This document shows positions 44,738 through 54,731 of a DNA stretch of 64,000 nucleotides, in pieces (positions within the stretch are counted from its first letter, which is position 1; each line of letters begins with the position of its first letter). The notes below the pieces were generated by a model. It was not told the DNA's origin, made no database searches, and saw nothing but the letters and a program-made list of their open reading frames with translations. The stretch spans positions 32,001 to 96,000 of the forward strand of contig JANNVX010000098.1 of the NCBI GenBank assembly GCA_031414595.1, read 5' to 3'. Position numbers and translations under genes: made by a program. Source of the stretch: Deinococcales bacterium. GTDB lineage: Bacteria > Deinococcota > Deinococci > Deinococcales > JAAFIG01.

Positions 44738-45142
44738 ATGAAATCTGTAACCTACCCATACTTACCAAATAGACAAAATTCTCTGATGCCGTATCTGCCC
44801 GTTCAACTCGAGCAGCAAGGTCGGGTTATAGAAACTATGGCGTTGGTAGACAGTGGCGCAGTTTCCAGTATTTTGCCATATTCAATGGGACTAGCCCTAG
44901 GATTAGATTGGCAGTCAGCCCAACAAGGTTTAGATGTGATTGGAGCAGTTGTTTCACCTTCAAAAAATGTTCGTGCGGTACTGCATATCCCGCAATTCTC
45001 GGCACTCGAGACGGGGTTTTCTTGGGTTGAAGATGATAATAAGCCGTTAATTCTTGGGCAGAGGATTTTCTTTTATCAGTTCCAAGTTCAGTTTGACGGT
45101 CGGCAACCAAGTTTTACTTTGACAAGGCAGGAACAAGCATGA
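44738..45142 (+). CDS. Retropepsin-like aspartic protease (copy 1)
   Basis: MPY, ALVDSGA, GLALGLDW, PLILGQRIFF. Confidence 0.8.
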   Translation: MKSVTYPYLPNRQNSLMPYLPVQLEQQGRVIETMALVDSGAVSSILPYSMGLALGLDWQSAQQGLDVIGAVVSPSKNVRAVLHIPQFSALETGFSWVEDDNKPLILGQRIFFYQFQVQFDGRQPSFTLTRQEQA

Positions 45143-46906: not shown

Positions 46907-47105
46907 TTATGTGCAACAAGCTAAAAATTATAGTTTAGACGAACGTCAAGAAATCATTGCCAGTCTCCAAGAACAAATTTTTGAGCAGCGACAAAAAACC
47001 ATGATAAAACCACGAAAAGATGGGGTGTTTGAAATTTGGTCTCCGACTGTAGATGCTGCTTCGATGGAAAAACTTCAAGAACGAGCAAGGCAGCGAAAAC
47101 TGTGA
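46893..47105 (+). CDS. Small partner protein of retropepsin module (copy 2)
   Basis: MSVL start, FEIWSP motif; GTGA overlap with the protease. Confidence 0.72.
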   Translation: MSVLDYVQQAKNYSLDERQEIIASLQEQIFEQRQKTMIKPRKDGVFEIWSPTVDAASMEKLQERARQRKL

Positions 47106-47527
47106 GCCGAATAGCCCGATTTCCGTATGCAGAATCAGCTACCAATGTGCGTATGCCGTATATAGATGTGCTTATTGATTCTGGCGAAGTAGCAGTTCGA
47201 GTCAAAGCTCTACTCGATTCAGGCGCAATGGTCAATGTCATTCCAAAGCAAGTAGGAGAACGGCTAAACTTAAACTGGGAAAAAGGAGTAGATATTGCCC
47301 TAGGCGGTAACTTAGGCAAAGCACCTGCTCGAGCCTTTTATTTGAATTGTACAGTACAGGGTTTAGAAGTGACACAACTAGAACTTAATTGGTCAATGCT
47401 CGAGGATATTCCTGTTATTTTTGGGCAGTTTGATTTTTTCCAGAATTTCGATGTGTGTTTTTCGTACTCAGAAAATGAAATTAGTGTGCGACCTAGGCGA
47501 GTACAACAGAATCAAGGTGAAGCATGA
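47102..47527 (+). CDS. Retropepsin-like aspartic protease (copy 2)
   Basis: MPY, ALLDSGA, GERLNLNW, PVIFGQFDFF..FDVCF. Confidence 0.8.
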   Translation: MSRIARFPYAESATNVRMPYIDVLIDSGEVAVRVKALLDSGAMVNVIPKQVGERLNLNWEKGVDIALGGNLGKAPARAFYLNCTVQGLEVTQLELNWSMLEDIPVIFGQFDFFQNFDVCFSYSENEISVRPRRVQQNQGEA

Positions 47528-47668: not shown

Positions 47669-48037
47669 ATGGTTGATAAAATGAGTCAGAACAGAAACGT
47701 AAAAAGTGCATATAGTGCAACTCGCATTTCAATTAATTATCAAACCTATGTGGGCGCTCGATATATCGGTTGTGGGCTGACATTGCATTATCTTCCAGAT
47801 TCAGAATTACAAGTCAGTTGTACAGCAGAATTTCCTGTAAATGACAACTACCGAATTAATGTTTGTAAAGCGATAGAAAAAACTTGTCAAGAAAAGTTGT
47901 TTGTAGGACAATTTATTGTTGAAGAAATAGATTTTCATCCTATCTACTCGAGCCAAAATGCTTTTGAAAACGCCGCTCAACAAGCTGTTTTAGCAATTCT
48001 GGGCTTACTTTCTTTTAAGCCTCTCACAATGGAGTGA
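47669..48037 (+). CDS. Hypothetical protein, possible stand-alone EF-G domain IV / S5-domain-2-like fold
   Basis: IDFHPIYSSQNAFENAAQQA resembles EF-G domain IV YHDVDSSE.AF..AA. Confidence 0.45.
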   Translation: MVDKMSQNRNVKSAYSATRISINYQTYVGARYIGCGLTLHYLPDSELQVSCTAEFPVNDNYRINVCKAIEKTCQEKLFVGQFIVEEIDFHPIYSSQNAFENAAQQAVLAILGLLSFKPLTME

Positions 48038-48039
48038 CT

Positions 48040-50406
48040 ATGCCTAAAGTAATTGTGAATGATCGTCAAATCGAAGTCCCTAATGGTGCATCTGCTTTGG
48101 ATGCGGTTTTCCAAGCAGGTTTCGATGTGCCTTATTTCTGCTCTAACGAGTATCTCTCGCCGATTGGTGCGTGTCGAATGTGCCTTGTCGAAGCTGGCTC
48201 GCCGCGTAAAAATCCCGATGGTTCTTGGATTCTCGAGGATGGTGTTCCAAAACTGTTTTACTTCCCCGGTACAGTCGCAAGCTGCACACTGGCAACTTCC
48301 GAAGGCATGGTCATTAAAACCACCACTGAGGCGGCTGTCAAAGCCCAAGCTGGGATGATGGAATTCACGCTGATTAACCATCCGCTTGATTGCCCCACCT
48401 GCGATAAGGGTGGCGCGTGTGAACTCCAAGACCGAGCTTACGAGTATGGTTACGGCGAAGCGCGTTTTGAATTTACTCGCCGTCATGCCGATAAGCACCA
48501 TGCCCTGTCTGATTTTATTGTGCTGGATAAGGAACGCTGCATTCATTGCAAACGCTGTGTGCGTTACTTCGAGGAAATCCCGGGCGAAGAAGTGCTGGAT
48601 TTCATCGAACGCGGTGGGCATACTTTTATAGATTCGTACCAATCCGAAGACTTGGCGGGCGCAAAACTCGGTAATTTTAGCGGCAATATTAACGACCTCT
48701 GCCCTGTAGGAGCGCTGCTCGATAACGTCTCGAGATTCCGTGGGCGCAACTGGGAATATGACCGCACCCAAACCACCGATATGTCCAACGCCGATGGCTC
48801 GAGTATTTGGGTGGATGCTCGAACGGGGCGAATCGAACGCATTCGCGCCGCTCACAACAAAGAAGTTAATGAAATTTGGATTTCCGACGCACAGCGTTTT
48901 GGGCATGAATGGGTGGATGCCGATGCTCGAGTCCGCACGCCACTGATTCGTAAAAATGGCAAACTCGAGCCAGCCACCTTTGATGAAGCTGTTGAAGTGA
49001 TTGCAAAAGCCAATCTCGAGCCGAGCAAATTAGGTTTGTATACCAGTGCTGACATCACCCTCGAGGAAGGTGTGGCGCTTGAGTCGTTTGCTAAGACCAT
49101 TGCGACCATCAATGTAGACCATTTTCCGCGTTATAACAGCGCTCTGAGTGGTGTTGCTCGAGCCACCTTTACCGACCTTGCCAAAGCGGACGCAATTATC
49201 GTGATTGGTGCAGACTTGTACGAAGAATCTGGCACAGCCTACTTGCGAATCGAGGAGAGCTTGAAGGGTGTTATCACCTCCGACACGCAATTTAATCACG
49301 GTGCGCCTTTGGCAGATTTGCGTCTCAAAGAACGCATGGACAGAAAGCGCGGTAAACTGGCGGTCTTTGCACCAATTCCAGTGCAACAAATGAGCCACGC
49401 GGGAATCTCGAGCCTGTATGCAGTAGGTGCTGAACTCGAGCTTTTGGCGCAGATTAACCAAGCCAAATCGGGTAATGACTCGAGCAACGCCCAAGCCAAC
49501 GCTGCTGGCAAACTGCTCTCGAGTGCCAAAAACCCTGTGATTGTGCTGGGTAGCTTTGCGCTTGCCTCAGATGCCGAAAAAGTGTTGGCAGCCGCTAAGA
49601 AACTCGGTGGAAAAATCATGCCGATTCCAGCAGGTGCAAACGGCGCTGGACTCGAGACTTTAGAACTTGTACCAACCAAAAATGGGCGCAGTTTTGGGCA
49701 GTGGGACGGCTTAAAAGGCTTGTTCGTTTCGGGTAGTGCCATGACCAAGCGTCCAAAATCGCTCGAGATGTTGGTGGTTCACACCCATACCCTGACAGGC
49801 GCGGCACTCGAGGCGAATGTGGTGCTGCCAGCCCTGACTGCCTACGAGAAACGCGGCACAACCATGAATCTCGAGGGGCGCTTGTTGCCTTTGGCTGGGG
49901 CAGCCGTGGATGGTGGGCAAGGCGTGGACATGATTGGTGCGTTGCAAGTCTTATCCGATGCCATGAGTGCTAAACTCGAGATTCGTGGAACGCGCAGCGC
50001 CCAACGAATCCTGCAAGATAAATTTGGTCTCGAGATGGACAAAATTGCCGTTGAAGGTGCGTTTCCTGTGAAAACTGTCTCGAGTCGTTCAGCGCCAATT
50101 GTGCGCTCCACCACGGGCGAAACCGTACTGCTTGTGCCAAGAATGTGGTCTGAAAACATGCTCTCGAGCCAGCGCATCCGTGAAAGTGTCGGCGCAGATT
50201 ACTTAACTGTCAACTCGAGTGATGCCCAAAAAATGGGTGTGCGGGATGGCTTTACTTTAGAGCTAGAAGTCAACGGCAAACCTCGAGCCGTGACCGTTCG
50301 GATAGATGATGCGGTGTCTGCGCCAACGCTGCCCGCTTTGAATTCAGATTTGTCTGGGGCGCTTTCGAGTGTCAAAATAGCGGTCATGGCAGGAGGGGAT
50401 GATTAA
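48040..50406 (+). CDS. nuoG: NADH-quinone oxidoreductase subunit G
   Basis: [51 protein letters not shown]. Confidence 0.96.
50367..50405 (+). repeat. nuoG 3' end, duplicated at 51081-51119
   Basis: 36/39 identity with 51081-51119. Confidence 0.9.
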
Positions 50407-51048
50407 ATGAAAAAATGGTTACTGATACTGGTTTTACCCCTCTTTGCAGCTTGTTCAACTTTTGGTGGCGGCGAGCCTTGGGCGCGACAATTGCTTGCTC
50501 CGTCAGATAACACTTACCGTCAAGTCTGTGACTACACCCTGAGCAATCAACTTACTTCTAATCAACTCAGTAATTTTGGGGCAGCCGTCATTAAAACCGA
50601 GCAACTGGGGGATTTTAATGTTTTTAGTTCCACTTTCTTAGTGGGATTCACTTGCGGTATCCTCGAGCCACTTGCCAGAATCAATCCATCAGGAAAAGCC
50701 CAGTTGCTGCAAAGTAAAGAATTGGCGGATTTATCTCGCTTAGGGCGTTTTGTTGTTTCTACTCGAGTTCGGGTTAAAAACACCAGTCTGGAGAATAAAA
50801 AACTCACCCTAACTTTAGAAGATGAAAAGGGCGAAACCGTGCTGCAATTAAAACCAGAACCATTTATTGCGGGAACAGACGAAGAACCTCGCATTAGTTT
50901 TGCCCTGATTCCAGCCGATTACACCCCCACGCAATTACAAGCCTTTGAGAAAGTCCAAGCCATGTCTTTCAAAATTCAATTTGGAGAAAGCGAAGCCACT
51001 TTTCGTTTAACCCCCAAGGATTTTGGGGCTTTTCAGGTCAGTAAATAA
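50407..51048 (+). CDS. Hypothetical lipoprotein
   Basis: MKKWLLILVLPLFAAC lipobox. Confidence 0.7.
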   Translation: MKKWLLILVLPLFAACSTFGGGEPWARQLLAPSDNTYRQVCDYTLSNQLTSNQLSNFGAAVIKTEQLGDFNVFSSTFLVGFTCGILEPLARINPSGKAQLLQSKELADLSRLGRFVVSTRVRVKNTSLENKKLTLTLEDEKGETVLQLKPEPFIAGTDEEPRISFALIPADYTPTQLQAFEKVQAMSFKIQFGESEATFRLTPKDFGAFQVSK

Positions 51049-51080
51049 ATTACGAGGTTCGGATTTTCGCGGGATACTTT

Positions 51081-51119
51081 GAGTGTCAAAATAGCAGTGA
51101 TGGCAGGAGGCGATGATTA
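51081..51119 (+). repeat. Displaced duplicate of nuoG 3' end
   Basis: Encodes the same [12 protein letters not shown]; all 3 differences are synonymous third positions. Confidence 0.9.
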
Positions 51120-51122
51120 GGT

Positions 51123-51308
51123 ATGACAATGAAAATGGTGTACTGGGAAGATGACGGTTGGCTGGTTGGTCGTTTAATTGATTATCCAAATGTGGCAACT
51201 CAAGCCGAAACCCTTGAAGAACTCGAGGAGAACATTAAGGATGCCTTTGAACTGATGTATCTCGAGGATGTACCAGCCAATCACAAGTTTAAGGAAGTTA
51301 CCATTTGA
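51123..51308 (+). CDS. hicB: HicB-like antitoxin (short)
   Basis: YWEDDGWLVG...YPNVATQAETLEELEENIKDA. Confidence 0.85.
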   Translation: MTMKMVYWEDDGWLVGRLIDYPNVATQAETLEELEENIKDAFELMYLEDVPANHKFKEVTI

Positions 51309-51496
51309 AGCACCGTGACTTGATTCGCTTACTTGTTCAAAATGGTTGTTTTCTAAAACGAAACGGCAAAAAGCACGATTTGTACATCAATCCAGCAACA
51401 GGCGCATCATCGGCAGTTCCACGACATTCGGAAATCAAAGAGACAATGGCACGAATCATTCTGAAAGAATTAAGTATTGAAATAAAAAACAATTAG
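51305..51496 (+). CDS. hicA: HicA toxin
   Basis: KHRDLIRLL..NGC...R.GKKHDLY.NP...VPRHSEI. Confidence 0.88.
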   Translation: MKHRDLIRLLVQNGCFLKRNGKKHDLYINPATGASSAVPRHSEIKETMARIILKELSIEIKNN

Positions 51497-51539
51497 GTGA
51501 TGCTCGAGATTCAAACGTTTTGCTAAAAGAGGTGAAGAA

Positions 51540-51761
51540 GTGAATCCAAATCCAATACGTCCGCCGCAGCAATTTCTTGTAGACCATCATGGAATAAAAA
51601 CCCATGTTATTTTGCCGCTCGAGGAATACGAGGAAATGATTGACCAGCTTCTTGATGCAAGGGATGCGGTCGAAATGCCAAAATTAGTCGTAGAAGCTCG
51701 AGCCAATAGTGAGAGGATAACGATTGAAGAACTTCGCAAACAATATGGACTCGAGCCATAA
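51540..51761 (+). CDS. Orphan antitoxin-like protein
   Basis: QFLVDHHG.KTHVILPLEEYEEM...DARD...ERITIEEL pattern of RelE-partner antitoxins. Confidence 0.55.
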   Translation: MNPNPIRPPQQFLVDHHGIKTHVILPLEEYEEMIDQLLDARDAVEMPKLVVEARANSERITIEELRKQYGLEP

Positions 51762-51801
51762 GAGAAAAAATGAAGTCTATGAACGCTAATAAGGAGTACA
51801 A

Positions 51802-52926
51802 ATGCTGATTGAAATTTTAATTGTTTTACTAAAAGCCGTTGGTGTAGCCCTTGGGCTACTCACCACTTTCGCCTACATGACCCTAATCGAACGCCGTTTG
51901 CTTGGGCGTTTCCAAATGCGTCACGGTCCAAATCGGGTTGGTGGTCCGCTGGGTTTGGCTCAACCACTTGCCGATGCCATCAAAAGCATTTTCAAAGAGG
52001 ATGTCAACATCACCCTAGCCGATAAGTTCGTCTATTGGATTGCGCCACTTATCGCCATCACCATGTCCTTAACCGCTTTCGGAGCAATTCCAGCCGGTCC
52101 TGCTGGTAGTTTATTCGGCACTGACCCTTGGGTGTTTAACCTCGATATTGGCTTGCTGTTTATTCTTGGAACAACCAGCATGGGTGTCTACGGCATTTTT
52201 CTGGGTGGTTGGGCTTCGGGCAGCAAATACCCGCTTTTGGGTGGGCTTCGTGCCAGCGCCCAAGTGATTAGTTACGAACTCGGTATGGGGCTTAGTGTCT
52301 TGGGGCTACTGATTCTAGTGGGCAGCATGAACTTGCTCGAGATTGTCAAATGGCAAACCGAAAATGGCTGGTTAATTCTGTTTCAGTGTGTGGCTTTCAT
52401 GACTTTTTTTGTTTCCGCCTTTGCCGAAACCAACCGCTCACCGTTTGACCTTCCAGAAGCCGAACAAGAATTGGTGGCAGGGTTTCTAACCGAATACTCG
52501 AGCATCAAATGGGCATTGTTTCAAATGGCGGAGTACGTGGCAATGATTACGGCTTCGGCAGTCATGGCAACCTTGTTCTTTGGTGGCTACAAAGGACCAA
52601 ATCTCGAGATAGCTGGGTTTAACATTGGCAATATTCCATTTATTTGGTTGTACGCTAAAATTGGTGTGTTTTTGTTTGTGTTTATCTGGGTTCGGGCAAC
52701 GCTCCCTCGGATGAGGTACGACAAGCTGATGCAATTCGGTTGGAAGTTCTTGTTTCCTGTGGCACTAGGTAACACGCTTGTGGCAGCAGGTTTCAGAGGC
52801 TACTTCCCCAAAGATACCCCTTGGATTTTAGGTGGGATTAGCTTGGTTGCTCTCATTATTATTTTTGCTGTGACCTCGAGAAACCCTGTGCGACCCGCGC
52901 CTGCTCGAGCCAATGCTGGCGACTGA
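51802..52926 (+). CDS. nuoH: NADH-quinone oxidoreductase subunit H
   Basis: ERRLL...[44 protein letters not shown]. Confidence 0.97.
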
Positions 52927-52959
52927 TAGAATGATTTTGGAGGTGAATGAAATGAGTGT
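52901..52959 (+). repeat. nuoH 3'-end/junction repeat, family H (copy 1)
   Basis: 54/59 identical to 53581-53639; partial third copy at 54249-54278; contains CTCGAG, TGaTAGAAT and GGAGG. Confidence 0.9.
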
Positions 52960-53164
52960 GATGCAAATGGTTGAAAGTGTAAGGGAGTTATCCATAGCCG
53001 AAATTGAACAATTACAAGATGCGCTCGAGAAAGAACGTTTGATGCAACTCAGTAAAATAGCTGCTAAACGTTGGGCTGGTAAGACTTTTGAATTGTGTTT
53101 CCCCTCGAGCAAAGATGTACCTGTCCACCCTTTTCAAGTTTTTCTCGAGAATCAAAAACCATGA
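52952..53164 (+). CDS. Small partner protein of retropepsin module (copy 3)
   Basis: RBS GGAGGTG, MSV start, FELCFP motif; ATGA overlap. Confidence 0.7.
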   Translation: MSVMQMVESVRELSIAEIEQLQDALEKERLMQLSKIAAKRWAGKTFELCFPSSKDVPVHPFQVFLENQKP

Positions 53165-53577
53165 ATTACGTTAAATTTCCGTATCAACCAATCAAAGATG
53201 ATTTATTCATGCCTTATGCGTGGGTGCGTTTGTCCTTTGGTAATACTTTTTGGGATGAATGGGCTTTGGTTGATAGTGGTGCGGAAATCAATGTTATTCC
53301 GTTTAGTGTTGGAGTAAAATTGGGTCTTGATTGGAATACATCTGAAGATGGTCCAACAATTGGTGGTAGTGCTTCTGGTGCTACGAAAACTGTTGAACTT
53401 ACTGTGACTATCGGTTCTTTTACAAATGTGTCAATGAGTTTTTGTTGGCTCAGTCATGATAATGTTAGGGTTTTACTTGGAGAACAAGATTTTTTTGAGA
53501 ATTTTGCTGTTTATTTTGATTTACAAAACAAAGAATTTGCTTTGTTTCAATATGCAAAGAAACAGGATGTTGAGTAG
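53161..53577 (+). CDS. Retropepsin-like aspartic protease (copy 3)
   Basis: MPY, ALVDSGA, GVKLGLDW, VLLGEQDFF. Confidence 0.8.
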   Translation: MNYVKFPYQPIKDDLFMPYAWVRLSFGNTFWDEWALVDSGAEINVIPFSVGVKLGLDWNTSEDGPTIGGSASGATKTVELTVTIGSFTNVSMSFCWLSHDNVRVLLGEQDFFENFAVYFDLQNKEFALFQYAKKQDVE

Positions 53578-53580
53578 CCT

Positions 53581-53639
53581 CTGCTCGAGCTAAAGCTGGT
53601 AGCTGATAGAATGATTTTGGAGGTGAATGAAATGAGTGT
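53581..53639 (+). repeat. Family H junction repeat (copy 2)
   Basis: Exactly 680 bp downstream of copy 1. Confidence 0.9.
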
Positions 53640-53853
53640 CGGACAAATAATTACACAACTTAAAAGTCTCTCGAGAAATGATTTGGTCTTAATCGTGAAT
53701 GAGGCACAGAAAACACTTCATGAACTTGACCCGATTGCATCCAATCATCTTGACTTGTCCAAAATGCCAAAGAACCCTGAAATTTGGTCGCCTTGGGATG
53801 AATACCAAGCCGCTGATGATATGGAAAGATTACTCGCTGAGGGAAAATTGTGA
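53632..53853 (+). CDS. Small partner protein of retropepsin module (copy 4)
   Basis: MSV start, EIWSPWDEYQAA motif; GTGA overlap. Confidence 0.72.
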   Translation: MSVGQIITQLKSLSRNDLVLIVNEAQKTLHELDPIASNHLDLSKMPKNPEIWSPWDEYQAADDMERLLAEGKL

Positions 53854-54272
53854 GTGATGTAGAGCGTTTTTCTTACATAATTAAGGGCGAAATGGGTAAA
53901 ATGCCGATTATTCCTATTCGTTTCTTAGATAATAATAAAGCCATTGAAGAACTAGCGCTTTTAGATTCTGGTGCAGCCGTGAGTATTTTACCGTACAGAA
54001 TGGGTTTAGCATTAAAGCAGGATTGGAATAATCCAAAATTATATGAGGCTAGGCTAGGTGGCGTGTTTCGGCATTTAACTGGAAAATTTGTGAAAGTGTC
54101 ATTGCAAATTGGGCAACTCGAGCCTCGAGATGTTGCATTCGTGTGGATGGAATCTGAAAATGTGCCGCTTATTCTTGGTAATGGTAATTTCTTTCAGATT
54201 TTTGATGTGTGTTTTTCACGCTTAAACAATGAAATTTCGGTGCGTTTAGCTCGAGCCAAAGCTGGTAGCTGA
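53850..54272 (+). CDS. Retropepsin-like aspartic protease (copy 4)
   Basis: MP, ALLDSGA, GLALKQDW, PLILGNGNFF..FDVCF. Confidence 0.8.
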   Translation: MSDVERFSYIIKGEMGKMPIIPIRFLDNNKAIEELALLDSGAAVSILPYRMGLALKQDWNNPKLYEARLGGVFRHLTGKFVKVSLQIGQLEPRDVAFVWMESENVPLILGNGNFFQIFDVCFSRLNNEISVRLARAKAGS

Positions 54273-54278
54273 TAGAAT
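54249..54278 (+). repeat. Family H junction repeat (copy 3, partial)
   Basis: GCTCGAGCCAAAGCTGGTAGCTGATAGAAT. Confidence 0.85.
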
Positions 54279-54296
54279 AAAATTGGGGGAGTATTT

Positions 54297-54731
54297 ATGC
54301 CAAAAAGTAAAAATCCGTATAGCAAAGAGGTAAAAGAGAAGGCAATAAGAAAAGTTGCAGAAGGTTTGTCTTACGCTGAAGTAGGACGCGAAATGGGGAT
54401 TCCATATTCGACTATTAGTAATTGGTCTAAGGAAGGTGGTATTGAAAGTAAACATAGTAATGGCAAGGGGCAGGCTTTGTACAATATGATGCGGGTCTGT
54501 ACAACCTTGTTTCAAACAATAAGTCAAATCCATAGCTATGCTTATGGCACTTTTCAAAACAGTAGGCACTATAAACATCTACGAGACGCTGCAAAAAAGG
54601 GCTTACTTGAAAGAAGAATAGATGGATTAGATGAGTCATTTAAATTAACAAAACTTGGCAAAGAATGGTTAAAAGCTAATGAAAATACTTTTGAAGAAAA
54701 ATATCAAGAATTAATTTTAAAGCGAGCGTAA
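54297..54731 (+). CDS. HTH protein (IS3 OrfA-like N-terminal HTH + winged-helix-like C-terminus)
   Basis: YSKEVKEKAI...SYAEVGREMGIPYSTISNW; KKGLLE...FKLTKLGKEWL; AT-rich. Confidence 0.6.
   Translation: MPKSKNPYSKEVKEKAIRKVAEGLSYAEVGREMGIPYSTISNWSKEGGIESKHSNGKGQALYNMMRVCTTLFQTISQIHSYAYGTFQNSRHYKHLRDAAKKGLLERRIDGLDESFKLTKLGKEWLKANENTFEEKYQELILKRA

Follow-up and report, generated by a model that had tools for sequence, protein, structure and literature searches.

Integrative elements that enter tRNA or protein genes at the 3' end duplicate their attachment site (attL/attR) and substitute the end of the gene, for which they need an integrase and a fixed site. The minimal mobile elements of Neisseria are alternative cassettes between conserved genes that are exchanged by transformation and flanking homology; they are not known to carry duplicated core-gene ends or stacked units. 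Furuta, Abe and Kobayashi (2010, PMC2853133), citing Nobusato et al. 2000 (Gene 259:99), describe insertion with long target duplication for restriction-modification units that insert without a transposase or integrase between direct repeats of more than 30 bp. The repeat is single at the empty site of a relative, is unique in the genome and often overlaps the 3' end of a gene, as do the 46-bp repeats at gene ends in Haemophilus influenzae; the cases come mostly from naturally competent species, and one is from Thermus thermophilus (PMC2853133). For Rhs, CDI and T6SS effector-immunity loci, Kirchberger et al. 2017 (PMC5361080) describe C-terminal displacement and orphan arrays; Jackson 2009 and Poole 2011 are among the references of that paper.

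The window analysed here is a stretch of 64,000 nt from the genome of a Deinococcales bacterium (G000), a draft metagenome-assembled genome (MAG); all genomes compared are likewise draft MAGs, except G013. This lineage belongs to the same phylum as Thermus thermophilus. In the window, the last 13 codons of nuoG are repeated 714 bases downstream, 3' of a lipoprotein gene (lipoA) and 2 bases ahead of hicB. As judged from the DNA sequences, the structure fits the known class of insertion with long target duplication.

The repeat at the nuoG end

The features between nuoG and nuoH are as follows.

48034..50406, + strand: nuoG, subunit G of complex I, 790 aa (open reading frame within the nuoA-N operon)
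50364..50406, + strand: copy 1, working nuoG tail, haplotype GCG-GTC-GGG-TAA, which appears to travel with lipoA (repeat; match to G004)
50407..51048, + strand: lipoA, 213-aa lipoprotein, probable inserted cargo, whose ATG abuts the nuoG stop (lipobox Cys16, family alignment)
51049..51077, + strand: spacer from the lipoA stop to copy 2, probable part of the cassette block (shared with G004)
51078..51120, + strand: copy 2, probable displaced former nuoG tail, haplotype GCA-GTG-GGC-TAG (repeat; match to G003)
51106..51110, + strand: GGAGG inside copy 2, likely hicB ribosome-binding site (sequence; 12 nt ahead of the ATG at 51123)
51123..51308, + strand: hicB-like antitoxin, 61 aa (weak UPF0150 match, E=0.0014)
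51305..51496, + strand: hicA toxin, 63 aa (PF07927, E=6.7e-9, 36.2 bits against a cut-off of 27)
51540..51761, + strand: orphan Phd/RelB-like antitoxin, 73 aa (weak matches to PF02604 and PF18506)
51802..52926, + strand: nuoH, start region G007-like, rest G001-like

A repeat search returned one 42-nt direct repeat (50364-50405 and 51078-51119, 38 of 42 bases identical, spacing 714), which occurs only at these two places in the 4.49-Mb genome. The copies differ at three synonymous sites (GCG/GCA, GTC/GTG and GGG/GGC) and in the stop (TAA/TAG), and translation of both gives an identical 12-residue peptide, exactly as the first-pass annotation had described for the last 39 bp of nuoG. With up to three mismatches allowed, the window contains two matches to the 36 coding bases of copy 2 (50368-50403 and 51082-51117), a count that was reached in none of 100 dinucleotide shuffles. 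The same annotation had reported weaker similarity for about 25 bp further upstream, which proved borderline: the ~34-base stretch between lipoA and copy 2, compared with the sequence upstream in nuoG of seven genomes, gave p values from 0.02 to 0.73 (0.02-0.17 in the better rows), and the head of nuoH fits about equally well and is just as borderline (12 of 14 bases, p about 0.015). Its remark that copy 2 supplies a GGAGG to hicB agrees with the sequence, in which the motif is likely to serve as the ribosome-binding site; at the native nuoG-hicB junctions of G013 and G018, hicB is preceded by the same codons that hold it. A scan of 50200-51900 returned no promoters and no terminators.

A draft MAG in 120 contigs could hold a misassembly. 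However, a separately built Logan contig of 5421 bases from the probable source run covers 49600-52200 with 0 differences, which argues that the arrangement is not an artefact of the MAG assembly. The same block is present in G004, and the longest exact word common to the two copies is at most 15 bases. An assembly artefact is therefore hardly credible.

If the final 714 bases of nuoG had been duplicated locally in tandem and the interior had then diverged into lipoA, this would account for a spacing divisible by three (714 bases are 238 codons), for the position of copy 2 in frame with the lipoA reading frame past the lipoA TAA, and for a 17-nt match (16/17) between 50115-50131 and 50829-50845 at the same 714 offset, also in frame. 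Yet identity in register beyond the repeat is at background (26.5% vs 24.8 +/- 1.8% at 430 other offsets) and the NuoG C-terminus aligns to LipoA in BLASTP with E=0.55, so that this origin of lipoA is close to refuted. In addition, the 17-mer sits in the conserved LEDEKG motif of a lipoprotein family to which LipoA belongs and which has members at other places in the nuo operon of relatives. We regard a tandem duplication as very improbable.

LipoA itself has no Pfam or NCBIfam family. Its predicted model (pLDDT 75) consists of a helical N-terminal part plus a beta-sandwich and has no match in the PDB at E<=0.001 (Foldseek). The UPF0150 match of HicB is weak (18.9 bits vs a cut-off of 27.3); the protein shares 75% identity with the HicB encoded after nuoG in G013. 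In a metagenome search with HicB, hicA was adjacent in all 80 loci kept, with a best identity of 61%; nuoG, nuoH, lipoA or the phd-like gene stood beside none of the 80, and no donor was found among them. From the HicA domain and the adjacency of the genes, hicB and hicA are predicted to form a HicAB type II toxin-antitoxin pair. No NCBIfam match was obtained for HicB, HicA, the Phd-like protein or the retropepsin-like module described below. The phd-like gene and the start of nuoH are 88% identical in DNA to G007. Over the 40 columns of 51780-51819, the sequence is 80% identical to G007 but 45% to G001, and from 51820 onward its identity to G001 is 95-100%; a crossover is thereby placed in the head of nuoH.

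Alleles and empty sites in relatives

The C-terminal 200 aa of NuoG were matched in 57 of 61 related genomes, and a related-locus search with a NuoG piece returned only the same genus. The allele of copy 2 stands at functional nuoG ends of relatives, being identical to the working end at 38 of 39 bases in G003 and 37 of 38 in G005, both of the same genus; the working end of G006 likewise has GCA and GGC. In G004, lipoA (92% identical in DNA, 98% in protein) lies behind a nuoG tail that equals copy 1 at all 35 bases available, suggesting that the first allele travels with the cassette. Thus, the earlier proposal that the cassette came from a related genome with its own nuoG end is largely supported. 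That proposal would have been refuted if the second allele were missing from functional nuoG ends of relatives and if there were no empty site; neither is the case.

The gene that follows nuoG varies. Among 15 genomes of the family in which the nuoG end was recovered, it is a lipoprotein gene in five, a small ORF in four, nuoH in four and hicB in two, and across eight genomes of the genus, between 0 and 4 genes separate nuoG from nuoH. The direct succession of nuoG and hicB, which the first-pass annotation had suggested looking for, is found in G013 and G018, two other genera of the family in which the hicB start overlaps the nuoG stop, and in none of seven genomes of the same genus. It also appears in a 350-base contig of an independent run (X5) that aligns to 51081-51278 and is preceded by 12 bases that equal genuine nuoG sequence of G003, G006 and G007; since the contig was built by de Bruijn assembly from a mixed community, it may be a chimera across a repeat. 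Record 9 of the same run (depth 6.4) has the loose end TGGAGCGCTCTC ahead of 51081, and depths in X5 are 6.05 for the nuoG tail and 2.45 for a lipoA piece. Run X6 yielded a 151-base contig ending at 51080, and run X7 a lipoA piece only, neither of which informs on the junction.

Copy 2 is probably the former working end of nuoG, displaced by an incoming tail-lipoA block without a recombinase, as in insertion with long target duplication. We infer the following order and direction of events. Before the insertion, hicBA would have stood directly behind nuoG, and a block of nuoG tail, lipoA and short 3' flank would have been joined ahead of the resident tail. The incoming tail would now end nuoG, leaving the NuoG protein unchanged, and the resident tail would have been shifted 714 bases downstream, still carrying GGAGG ahead of hicB. 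The block would circulate among relatives via recombination, presumably by uptake of their DNA followed by homologous and illegitimate joining.

The joint in G004 bears on the age of these events. It is the same lipoA/relic joint as in G000, with a decayed second end that reads LNIKIVVKSGGND followed by a stop and has ~27 of 38 bases in common with copy 2 of G000 (manual count on the alignment). In G004, hicB is truncated and hicA is lost. The spacer differs between the two genomes by ~3 substitutions and one indel. Both relics begin with TTTGA at the left edge and diverge from the next base onward, the remainder of copy 2 being of the working type. Because G004 has this joint, the first duplication may be old and predate G000. 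At the divergence of the two genomes (dS 0.40 for lipoA and 0.65 for nuoH), a neutral 39-nt relic is expected to gather ~8 to 13 changes per lineage, with P(<=3) from 0.049 to 0.001, and copy 2 of G000 has no non-synonymous change. If the duplication predates G000, an un-decayed copy 2 calls for gene conversion or for a subsequent crossover with a haplotype that lacks the cassette. In the displacement account, a crossover in G000 between a lipoA-bearing and a cassette-free haplotype would lie no more than 5 to 8 bases into the tail homology, which would make copy 2 a fresh allele of the working type. Two hicB lineages had been considered as proof that the right-hand part was replaced in G004; this argument was dropped, as the identities of 55-81% also fit neutral decay.

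Alternatively, an old duplication that precedes the G000-G004 split may have been retained, with copy 2 kept as the initiation region of hicB, by repeated conversion from a working nuoG tail, or both; the purely synonymous pattern would then be a mark of conversion and not of recent displacement. The shared joint in G004 and the GGAGG in copy 2 are in keeping with this, as is the state of the relic, which has decayed in G004 along with the truncation of hicB and the loss of hicA, and is intact in G000 together with hicBA. However, this last correlation has n=2, and a ribosome-binding site constrains about 5 to 10 bases, not all non-synonymous sites of 13 codons. Moreover, copy 2 departs from copy 1 of its own genome at four sites, and the allele that it matches is found in other genomes, which indicates that conversion from copy 1 is not its source. 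A clean copy 2 might reflect gene conversion or selection on the hicB leader instead of recent displacement; overall, we consider a retained old duplication unlikely.

Duplicated ends at other loci and the search for a recombinase

The nuoG case is not isolated: there are several such places in the one genome. In the window, the end of nuoH is present in triplicate around two modules of small ORFs and a retropepsin-like gene.

52901..52968, + strand: working nuoH tail and leader, reference copy of the second tail-repeat family
53581..53648, + strand: relic nuoH tail and leader, 87%, z=25, behind the first small-ORF/retropepsin-like module (52913-53577)
54247..54314, + strand: second relic nuoH tail, 62%, core 54249-54294, z=13, behind the second module (53611-54272)

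The second relic precedes a helix-turn-helix gene (54297-54731). Relics of the nuoH tail behind retropepsin-like modules occur in G000 and also in G011 (z=21), G003 (z=9.7) and G007 (z=6.4). The G011 relic matches the nuoH tail of its own lineage at 48 of 54 bases, which would fit concerted evolution and to that extent favors a retained old duplication at nuoG as well. No relic tails of nuoD or nuoF and no relic heads of nuoE, nuoG, nuoH or nuoI were found in G000 above z=3.5. Elsewhere in the genome, 46-nt repeats on contig C90 enclose an hicAB-like cassette, for which the empty site in G001 is base-exact, and 36-nt repeats on contig C88 enclose a PIN-module insert of 3.4 kb, for which G004 and G007 have base-exact empty sites. 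For the cassettes on C67 and C64, no clean empty site was found in seven genomes of the genus, where contig breaks or other inserts occupy the position. Flanking repeats at these other loci are 36-68 nt long; those of the nuoH tail, C90, C88, C67 and C64 are unrelated in sequence, each deriving from its local target gene.

The motif CTCGAG lies on some left edges (nuoG tail in relatives, nuoH tail, G011 and C67) and off others (C90 and G013). It occurs once per 190 bases, and we make no claim for it as a cut-and-join site.

A single gene flanked by direct repeats could also be a site-specific excisable cassette, in which lipoA and one nuoG tail, as attachment site, form a 714-base circle under a recombinase encoded elsewhere. 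The presence of the same block in G004 is compatible with this. So is the arrangement in G013, where the order is nuoG-hicBA, a nuoH head relic (26/28), a nuoG tail relic (z=13.7), the lipoprotein gene and nuoH; gene order is thus reversed relative to G000, and the head-to-tail joint of nuoH and nuoG is the expected trace of a circular or tandem intermediate. Several pieces of evidence argue against it: (i) No integrase or transposase catalytic domain was detected by Pfam in the + strand ORFs from 35030 to 61646, which include the operon and the 714-base unit; the sole related match is the 144-aa HTH_Tnp_1-like ORF at 54297-54731, which lacks a catalytic domain. (ii) The repeats at the nuoH tail, C90, C88, C67 and C64 have no common sequence, so that one site-specific enzyme cannot account for all of them. 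(iii) The 42-nt repeat lies nowhere else in the genome. (iv) No joint skipping the 714 bases was listed among the contigs of four runs, which by itself is not evidence that it is absent. Neither an integron attC-type shared site nor, in the ORFs scanned, an IntI integrase was found, the boundary repeats being local gene ends unrelated to each other. An excisable cassette thus seems decidedly improbable. The earlier reading of the repeat as an integration footprint holds in the sense of recombination and not of a site-specific event, for which neither recombinase nor circle was seen.

The displacement proposed for nuoG might be part of a wider, recombinase-free life cycle of small cassettes in this Deinococcales lineage, although we regard this extension as doubtful. 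Toxin-antitoxin pairs, the lipoprotein gene and small-ORF/retropepsin-like modules, selfish or accessory, would loop out, by recombination between the flanking tail copies, as a unit of tail and cassette, sometimes with the head of the next gene. After uptake by a relative, one crossover with the homologous tail of an essential gene would integrate the unit. Units would come to be stacked head to tail, with the cassettes translated from signals in the copied tail, and they would settle by preference in the complex I operon, as it is indispensable.

Comparison with known systems

A literature search returned no toxin-antitoxin cassettes flanked by duplicated host-gene ends, which does not imply their absence from print. 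With the minimal mobile elements of Neisseria, the locus shares a variable spacer, here between nuoG and nuoH with its 0 to 4 genes in eight genomes. As in integrative elements, the direct repeats take in a gene's 3' end without disrupting the target gene; unlike in those elements, no integrase domain was found in the ORFs searched and the repeats vary by locus.

The likeness to Rhs, CDI and T6SS arrays (PMC5361080) is that the resident end is moved downstream by an incoming module with a gene end of its own, and that arrays grow by repetition. The route proposed there, homology-facilitated illegitimate recombination, in which one side is anchored by homology and the other is joined illegitimately, is also similar to the one suggested here. 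In those loci, however, the displaced ends are variable toxin tips with immunity genes and the protein is altered (PMC5361080), whereas here a conserved 13-codon housekeeping tail is involved and the protein is unchanged.

Relative to insertion with long target duplication as outlined in PMC2853133, the nuoG locus has a repeat of more than 30 bp (42 nt) that is unique and lies at a gene 3' end, with no mobile element detected in or beside the insert among the + strand ORFs scanned. Empty sites with both flanks are base-exact at C90 and C88; for nuoG/hicB, the candidates are the X5 contig with its 12 nuoG bases and the junctions in two other genera. The differences from that description are fourfold. 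The cargo comprises a lipoprotein gene, toxin-antitoxin pairs and small-ORF/retropepsin-like modules instead of restriction-modification units, which is a difference of cargo and not of architecture; the units are stacked between two essential genes in operon orientation; the duplicated tail holds the likely ribosome-binding site of the next gene; and the joint in G013 shows gene-head and gene-tail relics together.

The locus offers a well-resolved natural example of what appears to be the gain of a single gene without transposase or integrase: the two ends of the gene are available together with a candidate empty site, the decayed relic of a sister genome and, from another genus, the mirror-image order. 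The essential respiratory operon bears about 11 kb of such passengers (the sum of four spacers), and loci with several independent joints are concrete substrates for testing the mechanism of this insertion class. Read in this way, long target duplication would no longer be confined to restriction-modification units but would include small cassettes, among them toxin-antitoxin pairs, and its known range would take in a lineage of Deinococcales.

The duplicated nuoG end

The nuoA-N operon occupies 35030-61646 on the + strand of the window, which lies within contig C98 of a 4.49-Mb draft genome (G000). Several genes separate nuoG from nuoH:

Genes from nuoG to nuoH
48034-50406, +, nuoG
50407-51048, +, lipoprotein gene lipoA
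51123-51308, +, hicB
51305-51496, +, hicA
51540-51761, +, orphan Phd/RelB-like antitoxin gene
51802-52926, +, nuoH

A scan of 50200-51900 found no promoter-like or terminator-like sites, which fits read-through transcription of the nuo operon.

The strongest repeat of the region is a 42-nt direct repeat (50364-50405 and 51078-51119, 38 of 42 positions identical, spacing 714). Copy 1 is the working nuoG tail; copy 2 follows the lipoA stop, reads in the frame of lipoA and precedes hicB. The two copies have the same protein translation: three coding differences are all synonymous, and the stop codons differ. Only two matches to the 36 coding bases of the tail occur in the window at no more than 3 mismatches, a result reached in 0 of 100 shuffles, and the repeat is limited to two copies in the whole genome. 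In addition, an independent assembly of the probable source run has a contig that spans 49600-52200 with 0 differences. Repeat search, translation, shuffles and separate contig thus confirm the repeated nuoG end with exclusively synonymous coding differences that the first-pass annotation had described; the weaker similarity that it placed upstream of the repeat stays doubtful.

LipoA itself carries a lipobox cysteine plus two other cysteines that are invariant, and its structure model (pLDDT 75) combines a helical part with a beta-sandwich; a PDB structure search with this model gave no convincing match. As a query, LipoA matched 6 of 61 genomes, and its family is confined to spacers of the nuo operon within this bacterial family. 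Derivation of lipoA from the nuoG end as a diverged tandem duplication was rejected: identity at offset 714 outside the repeat is 26.5% versus 24.8 ± 1.8% at 430 other offsets, and the NuoG C-terminus and LipoA are dissimilar (E = 0.55). A 16/17 match at the same 714 offset and in frame (50115-50131 in nuoG, ..TGETVLL.., and 50829-50845 in lipoA, ..KGETVLQ..) lies within the LEDEKG motif, where the lipoprotein family is most conserved, and is probably due to chance.

Alleles and junctions in relatives

In the eight genomes of the genus (G000 and the following), the spacer between nuoG and nuoH is hypervariable.

Spacer content in same-genus genomes
G002: nuoH directly 3' of nuoG
G006: single lipoprotein gene
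G001, G003, G005, G007: small ORF first, then toxin-antitoxin, other, or another lipoprotein gene
G004: lipoA, decayed nuoG-like end, truncated hicB, phd-relE, second lipoprotein gene, nuoH

Across the 15 family genomes in which the nuoG end was recovered, the gene 3' of nuoG is a lipoprotein gene (5), a small ORF (4), nuoH (4) or hicB (2). The first-pass annotation had proposed that a cassette carrying its own nuoG end displaced the resident end, and had named among its checks a comparison of both copies with the nuoG ends of relatives and a search for strains in which hicB directly follows nuoG. The first places the copy 2 allele (GCA, GGC) at the working nuoG ends of G003 (38/39) and G005 (37/38); the copy 1 haplotype is identical to the tail before lipoA in G004 over all 35 available bases. 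The second finds hicB directly behind nuoG in G013 and G018, both of other genera, with the hicB start overlapping the nuoG stop in each. Further support comes from an independent biofilm metagenome run of another study, in which a 350-base contig (depth 6.4) covers 51081-51278 and 51468-51594 and has directly ahead of these TGGAGCGCTCTC, the exact nuoG sequence found 5' of the tail in G003, G006 and G007. Depths in this run are 2.45 for the lipoA piece and 6.05 for the nuoG tail. On this evidence the majority strain appears to have hicB directly behind nuoG, although so short a contig is support rather than proof.

At 80 metagenome loci encoding relatives of HicB (up to 61% identity), hicA is always present and nuo genes never are; no donor was found there. 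Separately, G005 contigs C476 and C663 match a toxin-antitoxin locus of G000 (C64:29000-30700) at 100% over 1274 and 485 bases, whereas the two genomes are ~10% different in nuoG and nuoH, which suggests very recent transfer or cross-binning.

The state of copy 2 bears on its age. G000 and G004 have lipoA (92% DNA and 98% protein identity, dS 0.40) and its 3' flank in common, and their identity drops to about 65-73% from 51083 onward. A neutral 39-nt relic would be expected to collect ~8 to 13 changes per lineage (dS 0.40 to 0.65 between G000 and G004). The G004 relic, which reads LNIKIVVKSGGND before its stop, is decayed as this expectation predicts, and hicA is lost there. Copy 2 in G000 has 0 non-synonymous changes; under that expectation, no more than 3 changes would occur with a probability of 0.049 to 0.001. 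The main rival explanation is that copy 2 was kept clean by gene conversion or by selection on the hicB leader; a GGAGG does lie inside copy 2, at 51106-51110. The left edge of the relic is TTTGA in both genomes, versus CTCGA at working ends, and the two diverge from the base that follows. These observations are most simply read as a crossover in G000 between a lipoA-bearing and a cassette-free haplotype within the first few bases of tail homology, after which copy 2 would have been a working nuoG end until recently. The phd-like gene and the bin 51780-51819, the latter comprising the nuoH start and the bases just 5' of it, resemble G007 (80-88%), and the remainder of nuoH is G001-like (95-100%). 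Judging from these affinities, crossovers in core-gene ends do take place in this genome.

The same architecture elsewhere

The tail and leader of nuoH (52901-52968) recur at 53581-53648 (87%) and 54247-54314 (62%), flanking two different small-ORF/retropepsin-like modules ahead of an HTH gene. Relic nuoH tails lie behind the retropepsin-like module in G011 (48/54, z = 21), G003 (z = 9.7) and G007 (z = 6.4); none was found in the 7 other genomes with enough sequence. The module is also present 3' of nuoH in relatives of two genera. All four retropepsin-like genes of the 4.49-Mb genome are within this one operon, each preceded by a small ORF of 64-83 aa.

Retropepsin-like (aspartyl protease) genes
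44738-45142
47036-47527
53095-53577
53850-54272

Passenger genes in the operon amount to ~11 kb; they occupy four spacers and are all encoded on the same strand as the operon. Between nuoD and nuoE lie two Uma2-family genes together with an ORF of 87 aa. Between nuoF and nuoG are two DNA methylase genes, each next to an unknown ORF, as well as a PIN module, a 122-aa ORF and two small-ORF/retropepsin-like modules. The nuoG-nuoH and nuoH-nuoI spacers contain the genes given above.

G013, a single-contig genome, has the mirror order: nuoG, hicB (75% identical to that of G000) and hicA, followed by a nuoH-start relic (26/28), ~45 bases, then the relic of a nuoG tail (..VGVAVMAGSDD and stop, z = 13.7) whose stop overlaps the start of a lipoprotein gene, with nuoH next. 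This head-to-tail joint of two core genes (L049) shows tandem placement of whole 'tail-cassette-head' units; it lies ~365-480 bases 3' of the nuoG stop, and a 16-base insertion splits the nuoH-start relic. A weak relic (z = 3.5) is found in G015 at the end of the first of its two lipoprotein genes.

Of 881 direct repeats across the G000 genome (30-150 nt long, spaced 150-4000 nt), 28 span the stop codon of an ORF of at least 150 aa, most of them in repeat proteins. Apart from those at nuoG and nuoH, the clean cases are:

Inserts on other G000 contigs
C90: hicAB-like pair (HicA E = 4.7e-17)
C67: MazF/PemK-like pair
C64: weakly ParE-like
C88: 3.4-kb insert with PIN and HTH genes

Base-exact empty sites exist for the C90 insert in G001 and for the C88 insert in G004 and G007; no clean ones were found for C67 and C64. 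The C88 insertion is a true C-terminal replacement: the target repeat (C88:6228-6276, L142) is located within the 3'-terminal codons of a 301-aa gene, which gains new final codons and a stop from the insert, its original end lying 3.4 kb downstream. The C67 cassette is present at a different locus in G003 (L159, C15:116938-117510, 78% identity) and so moves from one site to another. Around it there, no direct repeat of at least 20 nt was found. As a separate feature of this genome, CTCGAG is three times as frequent as the next most common hexamer (23,235 copies, 5.2 per kb, ~24x the base-composition expectation; 352 in the window), and hexamers containing GGCC are nearly absent (e.g., 5 copies of CCGGCC).

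Mechanism and relation to known insertions

No integrase or transposase catalytic domains were found among the ORFs of the nuo operon, and the flanking repeats are target-derived and unrelated in sequence from locus to locus, so a site-specific recombination system is unlikely. A homologous anchor on one side with an illegitimate join on the other, as proposed for displaced gene-end arrays by Kirchberger et al. (PMC5361080), may have produced the G000 insert with DNA from relatives. Once flanked by tail copies, a unit could be moved, or the DNA behind it swapped, by ordinary homologous recombination.

The features appear to match 'insertion with long target duplication'. As described in PMC2853133, this class has direct repeats >30 bp that are single at the empty site, occurs without another mobile element, and has repeats that often overlap gene 3' ends. 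Its cases are mostly in naturally competent species, one Thermus thermophilus case being listed; the mechanism is left open there, with a proposed cycle of insertion, amplification via the repeats and release. Given the alleles, the G013 and G018 junctions and the G004 joint, the displacement reading of the first-pass annotation is essentially right. The repeated nuoG end is real and is a further member of this known class. Its value comes from a range of comparison states that is unusually complete and from the recurrence of the pattern inside a single essential operon.
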